A stretch of 64,000 nt of DNA from Candidatus Anstonellaceae archaeon (lineage in GTDB: Archaea > Micrarchaeota > Micrarchaeia > Anstonellales > Anstonellaceae): NCBI GenBank assembly GCA_038887295.1, contig JAWAKW010000001.1:366359-430358 (forward strand), written 5' to 3'. The position numbers were made by a program, and so were the translations under genes. Positions 14,067-57,104 of the stretch are shown one piece after another (positions within the stretch are counted from its first letter, which is position 1; every line of letters starts with the position of its first letter). The notes beneath the pieces are model-generated. The model was given only the letters and a program-made list of their open reading frames with translations. It was not told the DNA's origin and did not search any database.

Positions 14067-15494
14067 TTAGCCTTTGACCACGCCAATTGGAACTAGCCTA
14101 GCAACAATATCGCTTAAGCCTGCCTTCTGCACAGAGGCGACCACGTCGTCCACGTTTTTGTAAGCTTCCGGCGCTTCTTCCGCAAGCAGCTCAAATTCTG
14201 TTGCCTTCACCATAATCCCTTTTTGCATCAGGCTGCTTTGTATCTCTTTTCCGCTCCAGGTTTTGACTGCTTTGCTTCTGCTCATTGACCTGCCTGCGCC
14301 ATGGCAGGAAGAGCCCCAAGAATTCTGCATCGCACCTCGCTTTCCTACAAGCACATAGGATGCAGTCCCCATGCTTCCAGGAATCAAAACCGGCTGGCCT
14401 ATCTCCCTATAGTAATCAGGCAATTCCTTTCTGCCCGCAGCAAATGCCCTTGTGGCTCCTTTTCTGTGCACACAAAGCTTCATCCTTTTTCCATCCACTT
14501 CATGCTCTTCGAATTTTGCTATGTTGTGGCAAACATCATATATCAACGGCATCTGGTCACTTGTGCCTTTTCCGAAAACTTCGTCAAAAGTCTGCCTTAC
14601 CCAATGCATCATCACATGCCTGTTGCAAAACGCATAGTTTACAGCGCAATACATTGCCTTGATGTATCTTTCTGCCTCAGGAGAATTTATCGGCGCGCAG
14701 CACAGTTCTGGGTCTGGAAGCTCTATGCCATATTTTCTTGAGGCAGCAATCATTTGCCTTAGGTAGTCATCGCATACTTGATGGCCAAATCCTCTTGAGC
14801 CGCAGTGTATCATTACCACTATCTTGCCCTCTTCAAGGCCGAATTTTTTTGCAACCTCGGGCTGGAAAATTTGCTGGACCTCTTGAAGCTCCACAAAATG
14901 GTTCCCTGCCCCTACGGTTCCAAATTGCGGTAAGCCTCTGCTTTTTGCCTTATCAGAAACAGCTGATGGGTCTGCGCCCTCCATTTTCCCGTTTTCTTCA
15001 GTCCTTTCTTTGTCCTTGCGTGTCCCAAAGCCATTGCGTATTGCCCAATCCACTCCCTCAACTACAGCTTCGTCCAATTCCTGCACTTTCAGTCTCAGCT
15101 TGCCTTTTGATCCGACGCCAGATGGCACGTTCTTGAAAAGAAGGTCAATCAGCTGCCTCTTTTTTTCTTCCACCTCTTTCCTTACAAGTGGAGTGGCAAT
15201 CAGCCTCACCCCGCAGTTAATATCGTACCCTACTCCCCCAGGTGAAATTACGCCTTCTTCCACGTCAAATGCAGCGACCCCACCTATAGGGAAACCATAA
15301 CCTTCATGGCCGTCCGGCATCAGCAAAGAGTGTTTCACTATGCCCGGCAAGCACGCAACATTTTTCAGCTGCTCAAATGTCCTGTCTTTTCCCATTCCTG
15401 CAAAGACTTCCTGCGTTGCAAAGACTCTTGCAGATACCCTCATTTTGCCTTCTTTTTCAATCTCCCAAATTGCAGGTGCTATTTGCTGCGCCAT
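14067..15494 (-). CDS. rtcB: RNA-splicing ligase RtcB
   Basis: MPDGHEGYGFPIGG, GVGYDINCG, GAGNHFVE, HRKGATRA, SCHGAGR, EEAPEAYK. Confidence 0.97.
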   Translation of the reverse strand: MAQQIAPAIWEIEKEGKMRVSARVFATQEVFAGMGKDRTFEQLKNVACLPGIVKHSLLMPDGHEGYGFPIGGVAAFDVEEGVISPGGVGYDINCGVRLIATPLVRKEVEEKKRQLIDLLFKNVPSGVGSKGKLRLKVQELDEAVVEGVDWAIRNGFGTRKDKERTEENGKMEGADPSAVSDKAKSRGLPQFGTVGAGNHFVELQEVQQIFQPEVAKKFGLEEGKIVVMIHCGSRGFGHQVCDDYLRQMIAASRKYGIELPDPELCCAPINSPEAERYIKAMYCAVNYAFCNRHVMMHWVRQTFDEVFGKGTSDQMPLIYDVCHNIAKFEEHEVDGKRMKLCVHRKGATRAFAAGRKELPDYYREIGQPVLIPGSMGTASYVLVGKRGAMQNSWGSSCHGAGRSMSRSKAVKTWSGKEIQSSLMQKGIMVKATEFELLAEEAPEAYKNVDDVVASVQKAGLSDIVARLVPIGVVKG

Positions 15495-15503
15495 TTTCCC
15501 ACT

Positions 15504-16460
15504 TCAAGATGCTATCTCCTTTTTTATCTTCCAGAGGTGCTCTATGCGCTTTGCAGTAAGCGGGTGGGTCATGAAAAGCTCTACGATGCCGCCCTTTTTC
15601 TCTTTCTCCACAGCTTGAGCAAGGGTTGCAGCGTTATCTGCATCAATTGCTTTCATAACCTCAATAAAATCTGTTTTTGCAGCGGAGCTTTCTGCAAAAT
15701 AAAGCGCCTTCACCATGGATTGGCTATTTTCGCCAGAAGTCTTTACTCCATAGCTTATCTTTGCAAGCGCCCTCATCAAAGCTGCAGGGTTCCCAGTCAG
15801 CCGAGCAGAAAACTCATCAGCGTAGTATTCGCGCTGGCGCGAAAGCCACATGACCATCAGCTGCCCAATGAACTGCGCTACAAAAGCACCAAGGAAAGCA
15901 GCAAGCGTGTTTCTTCCCTCTCGATCATTTCCAAAAATCAGCACCCCGTAGTAAAGCGCAACCGGCAAAACAGAAGCCAGTGTCATTACAGCAACGTCGC
16001 GGTTGTTTATGTGCCCAAGTTCGTGGGCTATTACTCCCTCCACTTCCTCACGGTTCAGTACGGACAAAAGGCCAGTGTGGATAGCTATCCCAGAATCATT
16101 CTGCGTCCGTCCGAACGCAAACGCATTCGGGCTTGAGTCATTCACAAGATATATCTTTGGCATGGGCATTCCAGCTTTTTTGCTTAAGCGTTCTACCATT
16201 TCAAAAATCTGCGGAGCGTCCTCGTATTTTAGCTCTTTTGCACCAGTTGCAATCTTTATTATCGTAGGGCCAAAATACCACTGCACGCCGAGCATGAACA
16301 GCGAAACCATCAGCCAAAACATTATGCCTCCAGAGCCGCCTATCCCAGAAGCAACCAAAATCACACCAAGTATTCCGGCAACTAGACCAAATACCAGCAC
16401 GCTAGTCAAAAGTATCCGAAGCCGCAGTCCTATCCCTGGAGTAAATATTTTGCTGCTCAT
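15504..16460 (-). CDS. htpX: Membrane zinc metalloprotease HtpX (M48)
   Basis: PNAFAFG, AHELGHI, SRQREYYAD, FMTHP; N-terminal TM helices. Confidence 0.92.
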   Translation of the reverse strand: MSSKIFTPGIGLRLRILLTSVLVFGLVAGILGVILVASGIGGSGGIMFWLMVSLFMLGVQWYFGPTIIKIATGAKELKYEDAPQIFEMVERLSKKAGMPMPKIYLVNDSSPNAFAFGRTQNDSGIAIHTGLLSVLNREEVEGVIAHELGHINNRDVAVMTLASVLPVALYYGVLIFGNDREGRNTLAAFLGAFVAQFIGQLMVMWLSRQREYYADEFSARLTGNPAALMRALAKISYGVKTSGENSQSMVKALYFAESSAAKTDFIEVMKAIDADNAATLAQAVEKEKKGGIVELFMTHPLTAKRIEHLWKIKKEIAS

Positions 16461-16618
16461 AGCCTCTCACCCAGCACTTTAGTAGTATAACTAACCTTTT
16501 ATTATTATTTTCCCATATTCTGCGTTGCGCCCTTGTAGTCCAACCTGGATAGGACACGAGCCTCCGAATGACTCGGCTTCCAGGCGAAAGTTCGTAATCC
16601 GGGTTCAAATCCCTCCCT

Positions 16619-16697
16619 AGGGGGCACTTATGTTAACCTTAAAGCCCCCTGAGGGTTCACTCGGTAGGGGGCAACCAGAATAAAAGCAGCGCCCCCT
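16619..16697. repeat. Two copies, 47 bp apart, of AGGGGGC-N18-GCCCCCT
   Basis: 16619-16650 and 16666-16697; the loops differ in sequence but both are 18 nt; each copy is followed by a GTTCAC linker. Confidence 0.9.
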
Positions 16698-16810
16698 CAC
16701 CGTTCACCCCCGAATAGTAACTGCAGATTTTGGGGGGCAAGAAAGAGACCCATGTTGGCATTTGTTAAAAACATCAAAGGTTGCCTTTTGCCAACCTCAA
16801 ACTAGCAAAT

Positions 16811-16934
16811 CTGGTGTTGGCATTAGGGGTTGAGGAAAGGGGACAATAGAAACACTGGTGTTCCCCTTTCCACTGGTGTTTGCCTTAGGGGTTGAGGAAA
16901 GGGGACTGTGGATACTCTGGTGTTCCCCTTTCCA
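16811..16934. repeat. 62-bp tandem direct repeat, each unit containing GGAAAGGGGA-N18-TCCCCTTTCC
   Basis: Units 16811-16872 and 16873-16934; differences are concentrated in the loop. Confidence 0.92.
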
Positions 16935-17003
16935 GGAGAGTCCCGGCAAGGGCGCGTTTTTTATCAAAAGTGCTATTAAGCTGTTGCTAGAAAATCACGC
17001 TTT

Positions 17004-19166
17004 ATGCAAAAGAAAATACTGATTACCGCTGCGCTTCCTTACGTGAACAATGTTCCTCATCTTGGCAACATAATAGGCTGTGTGCTTTCTGCAGATGTTT
17101 TTGCGCGGTATTGTAGAAGCAGAGGCTACCCAACCCTTTTTGTATGTGGCACAGATGAATACGGCACCGCAACCGAGGCAAAGGCTTTGGAGGAGGGCAT
17201 AAGCCCACAAGAGCTTTGCGACCGCTACCACCAAATACATCGGAAAATTTATGAATGGTTTGGAATTTCAACTGATATTTTCGGAAGGACCACCACTCCA
17301 CTTCATACTCAAATTACGCACGAGATTTTCCTTGCGCTTTACAAAAATGGCTATATCAAAGAAGATGAAATAGTGCAGGCTTATGATGAGAAAGCCGATA
17401 TGTTTCTTGCAGATCGCTTCATAGAAGGCACCTGCCCGCACTGTGGCTATGAGCAGGCAAGAGCAGATCAGTGCGACAAATGCGGCCGCCTACTCAACTT
17501 CGATGAATTAATCAACCCGATAAGCAAACTCACCAAGACTACTCCAGTCAAAAGGACTTCAAGGCATCTTTTCATAGACCTTCCTGAAATTGAAAAGCAG
17601 CTTGAAGAATGGATTGAAAAGACCTCAAAAGAGGGTTTTTGGTCTGAAAATTCTTATAAAATCTCCAAAGCTTGGCTTTCAGAAGGACTCAAAAAGCGCT
17701 GCATCACACGGGATCTAAAGTGGGGGGTGCCAGTGCCGCTTCCAGGCTGGGAGAAAAAAGTATTTTACGTTTGGTTTGATGCCCCAATCGGCTATATTTC
17801 AATAACCGCCAACTTCACCTCGGACTGGAGAAGCTGGTGGCAGAACCCCAACGAGGTTCTCCTCTATCAGTTTATGGGGAAAGACAATGTGCCATTTCAC
17901 ACAGTCATTTTTCCCTCCACCCTTATGGGAACAAGGCAAAATTGGACGCTAGTCTACCATCTTTCAACAACAGAATTTCTCAATTACGAAGGAGGGAAGT
18001 TCAGCAAATCAAGGGGCGTTGGGGTGTTTGGCAATGACGCAATGGAAAGCGGCATCCCTGCAGATGTTTGGAGATATTATCTGCTTGCAAACAGACCGGA
18101 GAAAACAGACTCTGATTTTACCTGGAAGGACTTTGCAGAAAAGACCAACAACGAGCTGCTTGCAAACCTCGGCAACCTTGTCAACAGGACGCTGGTGTTC
18201 ATTGACCGAGAATTTGGAGGGCAAATCCCTCAGCCTTCGCTTTCAAAAGAAGACCATGCTTTTATTGACTCTCAGAAATCCATTTTCGAAAAAGTTACTG
18301 CGCTTCTTGAGCGCGTGCAGCTCAAAGATGCACTTCACCTCATCATGCACGCAAGCAAGGAAGCAAATGCATATTTCCAAAAACAGCAGCCTTGGAAGAC
18401 TGCAAAAGAGGACAGGCAGCGGTGCGCTAGCGCAATTTTTGTGCTTGCAAACCAGATAAAAGACCTTGCTGTGGCTTTAGAGCCATTCCTGCCACACACC
18501 TCTGCTTCAATTTTTAGCCAGCTTTCCATCCCTCCTAAAAAATGGGAGGATTTAGGACGCCTCTCTTTGTTGCCGGGCCACAGGATTGGAAAGCCTGAAA
18601 TTCTTTTCAGAAAGCTTGAGCCAAAGCAAATTGCCGTGCTTTCGGCCAAATACGGCGGAAAGCAAACAGAAAGCGCAAGCTCTTCTGCACAGATCGCATC
18701 CGATGAGGTTTGGCTGGATTTGGAGGTGGCAAAAATAATCTCTGTCAAGCCCCATCCATCTGCCCAAAAGCTTTACATCGAGAAAATCCGCCTAGGAAAT
18801 GAAGAGAGGCAAATCGTCTCCGGTTTGGTGCCGTACTACAGCCCGCAAGAGCTTGAAGGGAAAAACATAATTTTGGTGAAGAATCTCAAGCCAGCAGTAA
18901 TTCGCGGGGTCGAATCCCAAGGGATGCTGCTTGCAGCCCAAGATGAAAAGGGGAACGTGGAAGTTCTTGTCGTGGATGCTGCAGAGGGCACCAAAGTCCA
19001 AATAGGTTCCTCTTCTGTTGCTGCTTCTTCGCAGATTACGATTGAGCAATTTTTCAGCGTGAAGCTTGAGGTGAAGGACGGCGTTTTTTTGGCAGGCGGC
19101 AAGCCGGTGCTGGTCGGCGGCCGGCCAATCACCACCAAGAGAGTGCTGAACGGAAAGGTGACTTAG
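17004..19166 (+). CDS. metG: Methionine--tRNA ligase with C-terminal tRNA-binding (Trbp111-like) domain
   Basis: LPYVNNVPHLGN, CPHC/CDKC knuckle, YVWFDAPIGY, KFSKS, ESQGMLLA. Confidence 0.97.
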   Translation: MQKKILITAALPYVNNVPHLGNIIGCVLSADVFARYCRSRGYPTLFVCGTDEYGTATEAKALEEGISPQELCDRYHQIHRKIYEWFGISTDIFGRTTTPLHTQITHEIFLALYKNGYIKEDEIVQAYDEKADMFLADRFIEGTCPHCGYEQARADQCDKCGRLLNFDELINPISKLTKTTPVKRTSRHLFIDLPEIEKQLEEWIEKTSKEGFWSENSYKISKAWLSEGLKKRCITRDLKWGVPVPLPGWEKKVFYVWFDAPIGYISITANFTSDWRSWWQNPNEVLLYQFMGKDNVPFHTVIFPSTLMGTRQNWTLVYHLSTTEFLNYEGGKFSKSRGVGVFGNDAMESGIPADVWRYYLLANRPEKTDSDFTWKDFAEKTNNELLANLGNLVNRTLVFIDREFGGQIPQPSLSKEDHAFIDSQKSIFEKVTALLERVQLKDALHLIMHASKEANAYFQKQQPWKTAKEDRQRCASAIFVLANQIKDLAVALEPFLPHTSASIFSQLSIPPKKWEDLGRLSLLPGHRIGKPEILFRKLEPKQIAVLSAKYGGKQTESASSSAQIASDEVWLDLEVAKIISVKPHPSAQKLYIEKIRLGNEERQIVSGLVPYYSPQELEGKNIILVKNLKPAVIRGVESQGMLLAAQDEKGNVEVLVVDAAEGTKVQIGSSSVAASSQITIEQFFSVKLEVKDGVFLAGGKPVLVGGRPITTKRVLNGKVT

Positions 19167-55934: not shown

Positions 55935-56867
55935 ATGAAGCTGAAAAAGCCAAACCTGCAACAAGTATCTGCTGCACTTCTTGCAGGCACCATGCTTGCC
56001 TCCTCAATTTTTTTCAGCAAATTCCTGGAAAGCCATCCCAGCCCAAAAGTCATCCAGTCTCCTGTCGCTCAAACTGCAGTTTCCGACACTATTTCAACCC
56101 CGCTTCGTCTTCAAACCACTTCATTCCGGCCCTCCACACTAAAAAAAGCAAGGCAATATCTTATTGCAAATGGTTTTGAGCATCAGTTTGTGGATTCGCT
56201 TTTTTCTGACAGCAGGCTTTCTAAGCTGAACATTTTTTCTTCTGCTTCCAAGCCTGCCAAAAAGCTAACTTATGAGGAATACAAAAGGCTTTATGGTTTT
56301 GAGGAGCTTGCAGTCAAAGGAGCAAAATTTTATCACTTACACAAAAACCTACTTGATTCGCTTCAATCCTTCACAGGTGTGCCTGCTTTTCTTGTGGTCT
56401 CAATTTTGGGCATAGAAAGTACTTATGGCAACAACTTGGGAAATCACCTCCTAATCAACGTCTTTCTTACAATAATTGAGGACAGGCCAGCAAGAAAGGA
56501 CTTTGCGCTGCAGCAACTTGAGGATTTCCTTGCATTATGCCGGCATTTTGGCATCGACCCATACAGCGTCAAAGGCTCGCATTGGGGCGCATTTTTGCCA
56601 GCCCAATTCATCCCTTCTTCTCTAAGAAAATACCTGCATGTGCTTGACTGCTCCTCATTTGAAGAGCTTTACAATATAGAAAATTCCATCAGGCTTGCAT
56701 TTTCCTACCTTGCAGATGCAGGTGCATCCGCAAAAGAAAATTTTTCGCTTGACAGCTCCAACTACGAAGCAGCATTTGCCTACAATCACTCTTCCTTTTA
56801 TGCCCGCCTTGCAGTTGAGCTTGCAGAAAGGATAAAGCAACTTTCCAAGAAAATGGGGCCGCTGTGA
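55935..56867 (+). CDS. MltB-like lytic murein transglycosylase (SLT_2 family) with N-terminal anchor
   Basis: VSILGIESTYG (catalytic Glu), KGSHWGAFLPAQFIPSS (GSxAGAMGxxQFMPSS-like), AYNHSSFYA..V.ELA..I. Confidence 0.82.
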   Translation: MKLKKPNLQQVSAALLAGTMLASSIFFSKFLESHPSPKVIQSPVAQTAVSDTISTPLRLQTTSFRPSTLKKARQYLIANGFEHQFVDSLFSDSRLSKLNIFSSASKPAKKLTYEEYKRLYGFEELAVKGAKFYHLHKNLLDSLQSFTGVPAFLVVSILGIESTYGNNLGNHLLINVFLTIIEDRPARKDFALQQLEDFLALCRHFGIDPYSVKGSHWGAFLPAQFIPSSLRKYLHVLDCSSFEELYNIENSIRLAFSYLADAGASAKENFSLDSSNYEAAFAYNHSSFYARLAVELAERIKQLSKKMGPL

Positions 56868-56942
56868 TTTGAACACAGATCACTAGGTTTTCCGAATGGG
56901 GTTTCCCGAACCTAGCAGCATACCAGGTTAGCCCACGGCCCC
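56854..56942 (-). tRNA. tRNA-Pro(CGG) with a 16-nt canonical intron (56889-56904)
   Basis: Acceptor GGGGCCG/CGGCCCC+A; anticodon stem CTAGG/CCTAG with loop TT-CGG-GA; BHB central helix TTCG/CGGA; T-arm CTGTG-TTCAAAT-CACAG. Confidence 0.92.
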
Positions 56943-57104
56943 AAGATGCATCTGGCAACACTTAAGGCAGACAGAAAGTTATGAGTGGTATTGATAAAAA
57001 AGTTTAGTGGTGGCTCTGGTGTTGTTGCTATGCCACCAAAGACCCAACTAGTGCAGCTTCTGCTTACCTTCCCATTTTTATTTTTTTCACAAGTAGCATG
57101 ATTC

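Follow-up and report, generated by a model that had tools for sequence, protein, structure and literature searches.

Can a tRNA gene whose T-loop is interrupted by 331 nucleotides (nt) of repeated DNA still give rise to a tRNA? The question is raised by a tRNA-Arg(CCG) gene at positions 16529-16954 of a 64,000-nt stretch of the genome of a Candidatus Anstonellaceae archaeon, a tiny organism of hot springs (assembly GCA_038887295.1, contig JAWAKW010000001.1, positions 366,359 to 430,358), hereafter the window. The original prediction placed this insert in the T-loop in addition to a canonical intron, and offered two explanations: that it is a non-canonical intron of exceptional size, or that a non-autonomous element has entered a tRNA gene which the cell may not need. 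The first is the one that we favor. Our best explanation, to which we assign a probability of about 0.85, is a functional tRNA-Arg(CCG) gene with two introns predicted to be spliced at bulge-helix-bulge (BHB) motifs, the larger of them built of repeats. It is carried by the presence of the insert in all six resolved members of the genus, compensatory changes in the acceptor stem, a maintained 3' splice helix, the enzymes EndA and RtcB, and inserts of the same type in the glycine tRNA genes of a relative.

Anatomy and identity of the interrupted gene

The gene lies on the forward strand in three pieces, with G1 read at position 16529. Its parts, each with the evidence for it, are as follows.

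16496-16512, +: A/T-rich TATA-like box CTTTTATTATTATTTTC, putative archaeal promoter of the tRNA gene, picked by eye, centered about 26 nt before G1
16529-16567, +: exon 1, tRNA positions 1-37 (sequence, ARAGORN after insert removal, orthologues)
16568-16588, +: intron 1, 21 nt, at the canonical 37/38 site (orthologues)
16589-16609, +: exon 2, positions 38-59 (sequence, orthologues)
16610-16940, +: intron 2, 331 nt, at 59/60 in the T-loop, predicted relaxed BHB (helix-bulge-helix, hBH) type (removal restores the tRNA; orthologue register)
16935-16940, +: GGAGAG, putative 3' splice adaptor within intron 2 (sequence, orthologues, folding)
16941-16954, +: exon 3, TCCCGGCAAGGGCG, positions 60-73 (sequence, ARAGORN after insert removal, orthologues)
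16957-16962, +: run of six T (T6), putative archaeal terminator (sequence)

Exon 1 comprises the acceptor strand GCCCTTG, the D arm, the anticodon stem strand CGAGC and the loop CTCCGA with anticodon CCG, and these last bases bring it to position 37. Exon 2 continues with A38, GTTCG, a 4-nt variable loop (TAAT), the T-stem strand CCGGG and the T-loop bases TTCAAA, and its 3' end at position 59 reads CCGGGTTCAAA. The remainder, T60, the T-stem strand CCCGG, the acceptor strand CAAGGGC and the discriminator G, forms exon 3, which is followed by CG. As the original prediction held, the tRNA reads normally to 16609 and resumes at 16941 with its stems intact: the 7 pairs of the acceptor stem and the 5 of the T-stem that bridge the insert are without exception Watson-Crick, and by our arithmetic a perfect 12-nt complement within 1200 nt has a chance expectation of about 7e-5. 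TCCC is present at both junctions of the insert (16610-16613 and 16941-16944), also as noted before. The 21-nt and 331-nt inserts do end alike, their ends TTCCAGGCGA and TTCCAGGAGA agreeing at 90% (direct-repeat family D6). The predicted joined junction at 59/60 reads GGTTCAAA followed by TCCCGG. Intron 2 has no open reading frame (ORF) of 60 codons or more and has stops in all six frames.

The expectation that standard finders would miss the gene was borne out. ARAGORN with default settings reported no tRNA gene in the 64-kb window, and its whole-genome runs with introns off (21 tRNAs) or on (30 tRNAs) gave no call at 16529-16954. Rfam at its gathering score found no match in the window, and none of the 36 matches of the genome to the tRNA family RF00005 covers the locus. 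Six chance-level matches in 16300-17200 from an Rfam search at E up to 10 (sau-41, mir-3099, mir-7094, ctRNA_p42d, ST7-OT3_2 and WT1-AS_2; E 4.2-9.3) were discarded. When 16610-16940 was removed by script, ARAGORN called a single tRNA with the exact ends 16529 and 16954. Its label, Ser(cga) with a long variable arm, was dropped. Orthologues carry 19-105 nt of unrelated sequence in place of the supposed arm, flanked by conserved CTCCGA and AGTTCG, and stem 27-31/39-43 covaries across it (pair 28-42 changes from G-C to A-T); the arm is therefore a 37/38 intron. The acceptor stem and discriminator resemble those of the tRNA-Arg(GCG) of the same genome, and the gene is tRNA-Arg(CCG).

Orthologues, splice motif and splicing enzymes

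The orthologous locus, a tRNA gene upstream of the methionyl-tRNA synthetase (MetRS) gene, was found in relatives via a 1-kb query. A pattern for the 5' exon, which is near-identical across the loci of 11 relatives, matched 11 loci, 10 of which were resolved. G000 denotes the genome of the window and the other G-numbers its relatives. A comparison of this kind had been proposed along with the prediction, and it places an insert at the same T-loop site in 6/6 resolved genomes of the same genus and in 0/4 resolved genomes outside it, with the following lengths.

Same genus: G000 331 nt; G016 236 nt; G009 214 nt; G019 109 nt; G002 26 nt; G010 20 nt
Outside the genus: G023, G024, G030 and G038, 0 nt each

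The position of the cut is ambiguous within single genes, from 59 to 63 in G000 on account of the TCCC repeat and from 55 to 59 in G009 on account of an A run. As 59/60 is the sole register compatible with both, it is taken as the intron site. Pairs 5-68 and 6-67 of the acceptor stem are T-A and T-A in G000, G016 and G009, T-A and T-G in G019, and C-G and C-G in G002 and G010, so both acceptor strands have changed together across the intron in the six intron-bearing genes. The interiors of the six introns are unrelated or alike in modules alone, and their lengths differ. Their last six bases are TGAAAA in G009, G019 and G010, TGCGAT in G002, GGAGAG in G000 and AGAGAG in G016; these pair with T-loop bases TTCA (54-57) at 4/4 positions in the first three genomes and at 3/4 in the others, and each of the six 3' ends leaves a 3-nt bulge that includes U60. 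T-rich runs follow exon 3 in 6/6 intron-bearing orthologues.

One call in G009 looked like an intact second copy of the gene (locus L021, ARAGORN 'Ser(cga)'). It was rejected as a contig-end duplicate of the interrupted gene: L021, at the end of G009 contig C1, duplicates the tRNA-Arg(CCG) locus of another contig, and its acceptor strand is false, ARAGORN having paired an arm of a hairpin, here called M1, that begins many of these inserts. The contig terminates in CTGTCTCTTATACACATCT, which we take to be a transposase library adapter, and this end is probably an assembly artefact.

A relaxed BHB at 59/60, with TTCA and GGAG pairing at 3 of 4 positions and a bulge of AG plus T, had been put forward. 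Those pairs and that bulge are present in the window copy, where one of the three pairs is G-U and AG plus U60 make the 3' bulge; the energetic preference, discussed below, lies with another register. The 37/38 intron likewise pairs at 3/4 positions (CTCC with GGCG, by eye). By our arithmetic one 3-of-4 match would arise by chance with a probability of about 0.14, and it is the conservation of the splice helix, not the match as such, that counts as evidence. The T-arm plus intron was folded for 10 introns. The T-stem is part of the minimum free energy (MFE) fold in 10/10 and the full canonical BHB in 3/10 (G009 Arg, G010 Arg and G009 Gly UCC), so that the strict form occurs in the MFE of the G009 and G010 orthologues. 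The canonical BHB lies at most 0.7 kcal/mol from the MFE in 6/10, 2.4-2.8 kcal/mol from it for both G000 introns and for G016, and 4.8 kcal/mol for G002. The window intron has what a relaxed BHB of the hBH class comprises, a T-stem, a 3-of-4 helix and possible 3-nt bulges, at 2.8 kcal/mol above the MFE.

The M1 hairpin appears to complete this motif on the 5' side. In 7/7 M1-bearing T-loop introns the partner of intron base 2 lies in the 3' arm of M1, which puts the hairpin at the expected start of the h' helix in a BHB. Both MFE folds of the window intron start a helix within the first two intron bases, and in the BHB-constrained fold intron bases 2-6 form pairs with GAGGG in the 3' arm of M1. 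An extra TCCCT in G000 and G016 fits as an internal bulge; the outer CCC is retained in 5/5 copies and the inner one drifts (TCCC, TTCC, TCTC).

Host genome G000 (867 kb in 30 contigs, 97.6% complete) has many intron-bearing tRNAs, and it encodes both a candidate endonuclease for relaxed motifs and a ligase. Its EndA, of 395 amino acids and encoded on contig C1 at about 52.1-53.6 kb, has two PF01974 catalytic-domain stretches and one PF02778 N-terminal domain and aligns over its full length with PDB 4fz2 (E 4e-129), which we take to be the epsilon2-type EndA of ARMAN-2. The genome is on this basis predicted to encode an ARMAN-2-like (epsilon2) splicing endonuclease, in keeping with the ARMAN-type enzyme that the prediction had invoked. 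Two papers describe the ARMAN-2 enzyme (PMC3239211, PMC3488258), and the former reports that it cuts both strict and relaxed BHB motifs. The gene for the tRNA-splicing ligase RtcB (14067-15494, reverse strand; PF01139, 592.9 bits) lies about 1 kb upstream of the tRNA, as a component of the pathway outside the tRNA gene. An M48 peptidase gene (15504-16460, reverse strand) separates the two, and the MetRS gene (17004-19166) lies downstream. RNase Z is also encoded in the genome.

In the pathway that we propose, one 426-nt precursor would be transcribed, carrying endonuclease-type introns of 21 nt at 37/38 and 331 nt at 59/60. The T-stem would serve as the outer helix of the 59/60 motif and T-loop bases 54-57 would pair with the terminal GGAG of the intron, leaving AG plus U60 as the 3' bulge and A58, A59 and the first intron base as the 5' bulge, and the M1 hairpin, able to start at intron base 2, would replace the h' helix. 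Both bulges would be cut by the epsilon2-type endonuclease of the genome, the exons would be joined by RtcB and the intron would probably be circularized by the same enzyme. Transcription through the intron, cleavage, ligation and circularization we infer from sequence. The insert is in all likelihood a real intron and not damage, and the 331-nt 59/60 intron is very probably spliced. The intron may have begun as a short 59/60 intron of about 20-26 nt within the genus and grown by gaining repeat modules (M1 hairpins, a middle segment and 62-nt M3 units), an inferred order whose direction is read from kinship labels alone.

Repeat modules and related introns in other tRNA genes

The 331-nt insert is made up of the following modules, all on the forward strand, between its first bases and the GGAGAG adaptor.

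16613-16665, +: M1 hairpin copy 1, CCCTAGGGGG - loop - CCCCCTGAGGG TTCA (model R1, 57.4 bits)
16660-16712, +: M1 hairpin copy 2, degenerate (model R1, 37.7 bits, E 4.3e-8; direct repeats D2 and D3, 47-nt spacing)
16713-16810, +: middle segment, about 90% shared with the tRNA-Gly(UCC) intron on contig C20; longest T run 4
16811-16934, +: two tandem 62-nt M3 units, 16811-16872 and 16873-16934 (D1 at 89%; I6, I8)

In M1 the arms CCCTAGGGGG and CCCCCTGAGGG, joined by the loop, are followed by TTCACCCCC. Each M3 unit holds an 11-bp hairpin (GGAAAGGGGAC / GTTCCCCTTTCC), and further copies of it occur in G000 and G016. In G000, BLAST with the whole insert as query turned up partial copies of it at six further loci and three contig ends. 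These copies sit inside T-loops or directly 3' of the discriminator of complete tRNAs (Leu-like, Val UAC, Ala GGC and others).

An M1 pattern matched 34 stretches in a 185,579-species collection, all of them in metagenome-assembled genomes (MAGs) of Micrarchaeota, including Micrarchaeia and Anstonellaceae. The M1 covariance model found 1-22 copies per genome in 22/22 other genomes of the genus, 32/41 of the family and 42/121 of a sample of the order. Covariation was scored on alignment A2 (26 further loci), since A1, whose search pattern had fixed the stem, was unfit for the purpose. In A2, which was fitted to the model and so favors the model's structure, 97.5% of cells pair and 3/10 pairs have two-sided changes (13 cells); the covariation score is 0.134, compared with 0.036 in shuffled alignments (0/500 reach the observed value) and at most 0.035 with partners slid. 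We sorted the contexts of 41 unique copies and of 29 further copies ourselves, with the following counts.

Just after the discriminator: 16/41 (1-3 nt); 4/29 (0-2 nt)
After position 59: 6/41; 4/29
After position 37 (Arg UCU, Arg CCU, Cys GCA): 5/41; 6/29
Tandem second copies: 4/41; 1/29
Within about 60 nt of a tRNA end: no count for the 41; 2/29
Elsewhere: 10/41, some after stop codons; 12/29

M1 thus lies mostly 0-3 bases (5 in G000 and G016) behind positions 37, 59 and the discriminator, which are the cut sites of tRNA precursors. At loci L055, L060, L031 and L044 of other Micrarchaeota, M1 stands directly after the stop codons of protein genes and after a promoter-looking TATATAATCCTTT-like motif, so it is not confined to tRNA genes. 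Two tandem M1 units follow a tRNA-Val at L039 / L117 of G019, where GCCCATT, the last bases of the tRNA, is repeated before the second unit, as if the tRNA end and M1 had been duplicated as a unit. In the trailer copies of G000 (for example C1:256526-256805), M3 units lie downstream of two or three runs of seven T (T7) and may not be co-transcribed with the tRNA.

The same intron type interrupts glycine tRNA genes. In G000, tRNA-Gly(UCC) on contig C20 has a 221-nt 59/60 intron with the same ends as the Arg intron, and a third 3' exon, of Gly(CCC), begins contig C12 (C12:1-38). G009, given as 100% complete, has 59/60 introns in Gly(GCC), Gly(CCC) and Gly(UCC), of 175, 204 and 225 nt, each with M1 first and TGAAAA or GGAAAA last, and the element also lies in Gly(UCC) and Gly(GCC) of G016. 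No uninterrupted Gly gene was found in the incomplete (97.6%) assembly of G000 by ARAGORN, RF00005 or BLAST with relatives' exons, or in G009 among the 30 best of 40 RF00005 matches. As glycine tRNAs are indispensable to the cell, introns of this type must be removed. BLAST with relatives' exons did not find the 5' exons of Gly(GCC) and Gly(CCC) in G000, which were probably lost at contig breaks.

An ARAGORN 'Gly(gcc)' at locus L024 of G009 was rejected, as we read it as a tRNA-Glu(CUC) with a D-loop intron. Its G000 counterparts, C1:1-111 and C26:17-129, are tRNA-Glu(CUC) genes whose D-loop region is interrupted by about 41 nt.

Large M1 introns also occur at 37/38, among them a 196-nt intron in the tRNA-Arg(UCU) gene of G002 and one of about 180 nt in a further genome. 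Short 59/60 introns interrupt Met(CAU) (20 nt), Arg(UCG) (21 nt) and Leu(UAG) (14 nt) of G000. The Met(CAU) gene (C1:254413-254592, reverse strand) has in addition an 85-nt anticodon-loop intron, whose GTGATGA / GATGAT strings are reminiscent of box C motifs. A tRNA-Ser(GGA) at C3:5029-5155 (forward strand) has an intron of about 43 nt at 57/58 in the T-loop and scores just 23.4 bits with RF00005. Within the window, a Leu(caa) gene containing a 16-nt intron is called at 56853-56943 (reverse strand; RF00005, 48.4 bits) when ARAGORN is run with introns on; it is absent from the default ARAGORN run and from the whole-window Rfam gathering scan.

A loose finder for tRNAs split in the T-loop gave many chance matches. 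Eight candidates were taken, and five gave a tRNA after insert removal. Of the three that failed, two were false positives (C2 and C10) and one, C1:232483, has a D-arm intron and no T-loop insert. At a looser setting the finder was also misled by a pseudo 3' exon that lies within M1 copy 2 of the window, and the stricter setting gave 331 nt.

A tentative idea, which we would not expect to be right but would not dismiss, is that M1 is a tRNA-hitchhiking element that makes or enlarges BHB introns by supplying the h' helix, that it is expressed and released via tRNA promoters, EndA and RNase Z, and that it spreads among tRNA genes sharing a T-arm. If so, circular RNA would come from introns and trailer RNA from 3' ends, and the locus would be a live example of the birth and growth of archaeal tRNA introns.

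Alternatives and known systems

Several observations weigh against a spliced intron or limit the evidence for it. RNAfold favors, by 2.4-2.8 kcal/mol in G000 and G016 and by 2.8 kcal/mol in the window copy itself, a register shifted by two bases (U54-G(n), U55-A, C56-G, with U60 bulged). The central helix has just 3/4 pairs, one of them G-U, in G000 and G016. Same-genus genome G004 was left out of the count of orthologues, a run of N starting directly after TTCAAA, and the acceptor pair counts are conditioned on a search whose finder demanded full pairing. The Arg intron of G016 contains a T7 run, a possible terminator. Among the sequencing runs listed, none recorded as RNA covers the locus, the single RNA run of the same study (X3) and a second DNA run (X2) gave nothing on the stretch, and expression is neither supported nor contradicted. 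The repeat-rich interior, notably the M3 copy number, rests on short-read assembly. Lastly, a tRNA-Arg(UCG) gene is present in the genome, as the caveat about wobble in the original prediction anticipated, and with CGG readable by wobble the loss of Arg(CCG) could be harmless.

The last point leads to the alternative that survives best, although we consider it improbable: a repeat resembling a miniature inverted-repeat transposable element (MITE) in the T-loop killed tRNA-Arg(CCG), whose loss was tolerable because Arg(UCG) decodes CGG by wobble. In favor of it, the insert is a repeat present in multiple copies, also at other tRNAs, TCCC at both junctions resembles a target-site duplication, the Arg(UCG) gene exists, and the BHB is relaxed only. 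A MITE would be expected to have terminal inverted repeats at each copy, together with a target-site duplication; here no inverted repeat joins the two ends of the insert, and the TCCC duplication is found in G000 and G016 but not in G009 or at the trailer copies. The exons are intact, with compensatory acceptor changes among the six insert-bearing species, and the 3' splice helix and bulge are kept where the interior is not. All three Gly genes of G009 carry the same type of insert, intact copies not being found among the 30 best of 40 RF00005 matches, and the T6 run stands after exon 3, not after exon 2. The element that the original prediction offered as its second explanation is thus present as a repeat family, but it appears to be tolerated as an intron and not to kill the gene.

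Very unlikely, in our view, is an assembly artefact in which tRNA parts were wrongly joined across repeats or the interior was mis-assembled. Contigs C8, C12, C20 and C26 of G000 do break inside the repeat family, and depth in the interior is mixed (44-188 among the unitigs listed, compared with 66-70 in the flanks). The interior, covered by short unitigs, has a higher summed depth, as repeats predict, and one unitig there, 16657-16757, is of lower depth. Against an artefact, the 5' part, an M1-bearing insert, the 3' exon and MetRS follow in the same order in the separate assemblies G016, G009 and G019. The read-level check suggested with the prediction came out in favor of the junctions: unitigs of DNA run X1 cover 16300-16628 and 16919-17600 with zero mismatches, running from unique flank into both insert ends, so that 31-mers span both junctions, with fewer than 31 bases on the insert side. 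No X1 contig joins the exons without the insert. The insert is real and the exact repeat copy number less certain; an error in the number of M3 or M1 copies is unlikely, though a good deal less so than a false insert. More generally, contigs of G000 end inside M1/M3 repeats or shared tRNA T-arms (the end of C8, the start of C20, and both ends of C12, C26 and C25), and the tRNA counts of such MAGs are therefore underestimates.

Equally hard to sustain is a split gene, in which the 5' part and the 14-nt 3' exon would be transcribed apart and joined in trans like the split tRNAs of Nanoarchaeum. In its favor are the T7 runs within the G016 insert and in trailer copies of the element. The parts of the window gene, on the other side, lie 331 nt apart on the same strand, with no TATA-like box seen by eye before exon 3 and ends that fold into a BHB in cis, and by eye there is a single upstream TATA-like box and a single T6 run after exon 3. 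T runs reach a length of 4 in the window intron and at most 5 in 8/9 large introns, and T7 runs occur in 5/5 G000 trailer copies, the first about 67 nt after the tRNA, a contrast that fits selection for read-through in intron copies. T runs are no absolute bar in G000, as its tRNA-Ser(GGA) has a T6 run inside the T-loop intron of about 43 nt. T-loops, anticodon loops and tRNA 3' ends serve integrases as crossover sites, and the insert is within the size range of small group I introns, yet an att-site remnant of an integrated element or a self-splicing (group I or II) intron is the least credible reading of all, with no Rfam intron family, Intron_gpI included, at E up to 10 in 16300-17200, no intact tRNA plus duplicated 3' fragment (each tRNA part is single-copy), no integrase or other ORF in the insert, and M48 peptidase, RtcB and MetRS genes as neighbors.

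For a functional gene with a repeat-built T-loop intron, several consequences follow. The T-loop is where finders do not look; in these genomes Arg(CCG), all Gly and other tRNAs are missed or mis-called, which lowers the tRNA counts used for MAG quality. The graded orthologous series of 0, 20, 26, 109, 214, 236 and 331 nt, with growth by repeat gain and a fixed splice signal, makes the origin and expansion of BHB introns directly testable. For the epsilon2 endonuclease, an enzyme of known structure, the intron would also be a natural and demanding substrate. The position of one hairpin module at three tRNA cleavage sites is a hint, without precedent in the literature searched, that tRNA processing and a repeat family are connected in DPANN archaea.

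The closest known system is ARMAN-2 (Candidatus Micrarchaeum acidiphilum), which shares with the present case its phylum, the 59/60 position, the relaxed hBH class and presumably, through 4fz2, the endonuclease type. Its pre-tRNA-Cys(GCA) has a 59/60 hBH-type intron that is cut by the epsilon2 EndA, and its tRNA-Pro(GGG) has introns at 53/54 and 59/60 (Fujishima et al. 2011, PMC3239211). Unlike these, the intron described here is built of repeat modules shared with other tRNAs, and M1 replaces the h' helix; its length is 331 nt, the lengths of the ARMAN-2 59/60 introns lying outside the comparison.

In Thermoproteales, related intron families have spread among tRNA genes ('intron transposition', cited in PMC3239211), a spread that serves as positive control in bioRxiv 10.64898/2026.10.13.758758. 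Similar introns likewise occur here across tRNA genes and positions, at 59/60 in Arg CCG and Gly and at 37/38 in Arg UCU, Arg CCU and Cys GCA of relatives. They are, in contrast, about ten times longer, the lineage is DPANN with an epsilon2 EndA, and copies of the module are also found beyond genes, immediately downstream of tRNA 3' ends and of some protein genes. Archaeal tRNA-Trp introns, which nest a box C/D small RNA (median 65 nt; PMC4090602), are also long and bear a structured RNA, and here too release by the tRNA splicing machinery is predicted; the present intron differs in lying in the T-loop instead of at 37/38 and in having no C/D or H/ACA match in Rfam. In Caldiarchaeum subterraneum, tRNA-Thr(GGU) is disrupted by a mobile element (Sugahara et al. 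2012, PMC3293823). There as here, repeated and probably mobile DNA is tied to the gain or growth of tRNA introns, but that element is 1.8 kb long, encodes a recombinase and scatters tRNA fragments, whereas the modules described here are non-coding and of 50-350 nt and leave the gene contiguous.

The remark in the original prediction that archaeal tRNA introns are usually far shorter agrees with the range of 11-129 nt given in a 2014 review (PMC4090602), whose upper bound the 331 nt exceed about 2.5-fold. No T-loop tRNA introns of about 200-330 nt and no M1 hairpin in Micrarchaeota were found in the literature searched, whose supplementary tables (e.g. of PMC3239211) may hold lengths. What is already known is the 59/60 hBH intron of ARMAN-2; what is new here is the exceptional length of the intron and its content of repeat modules.

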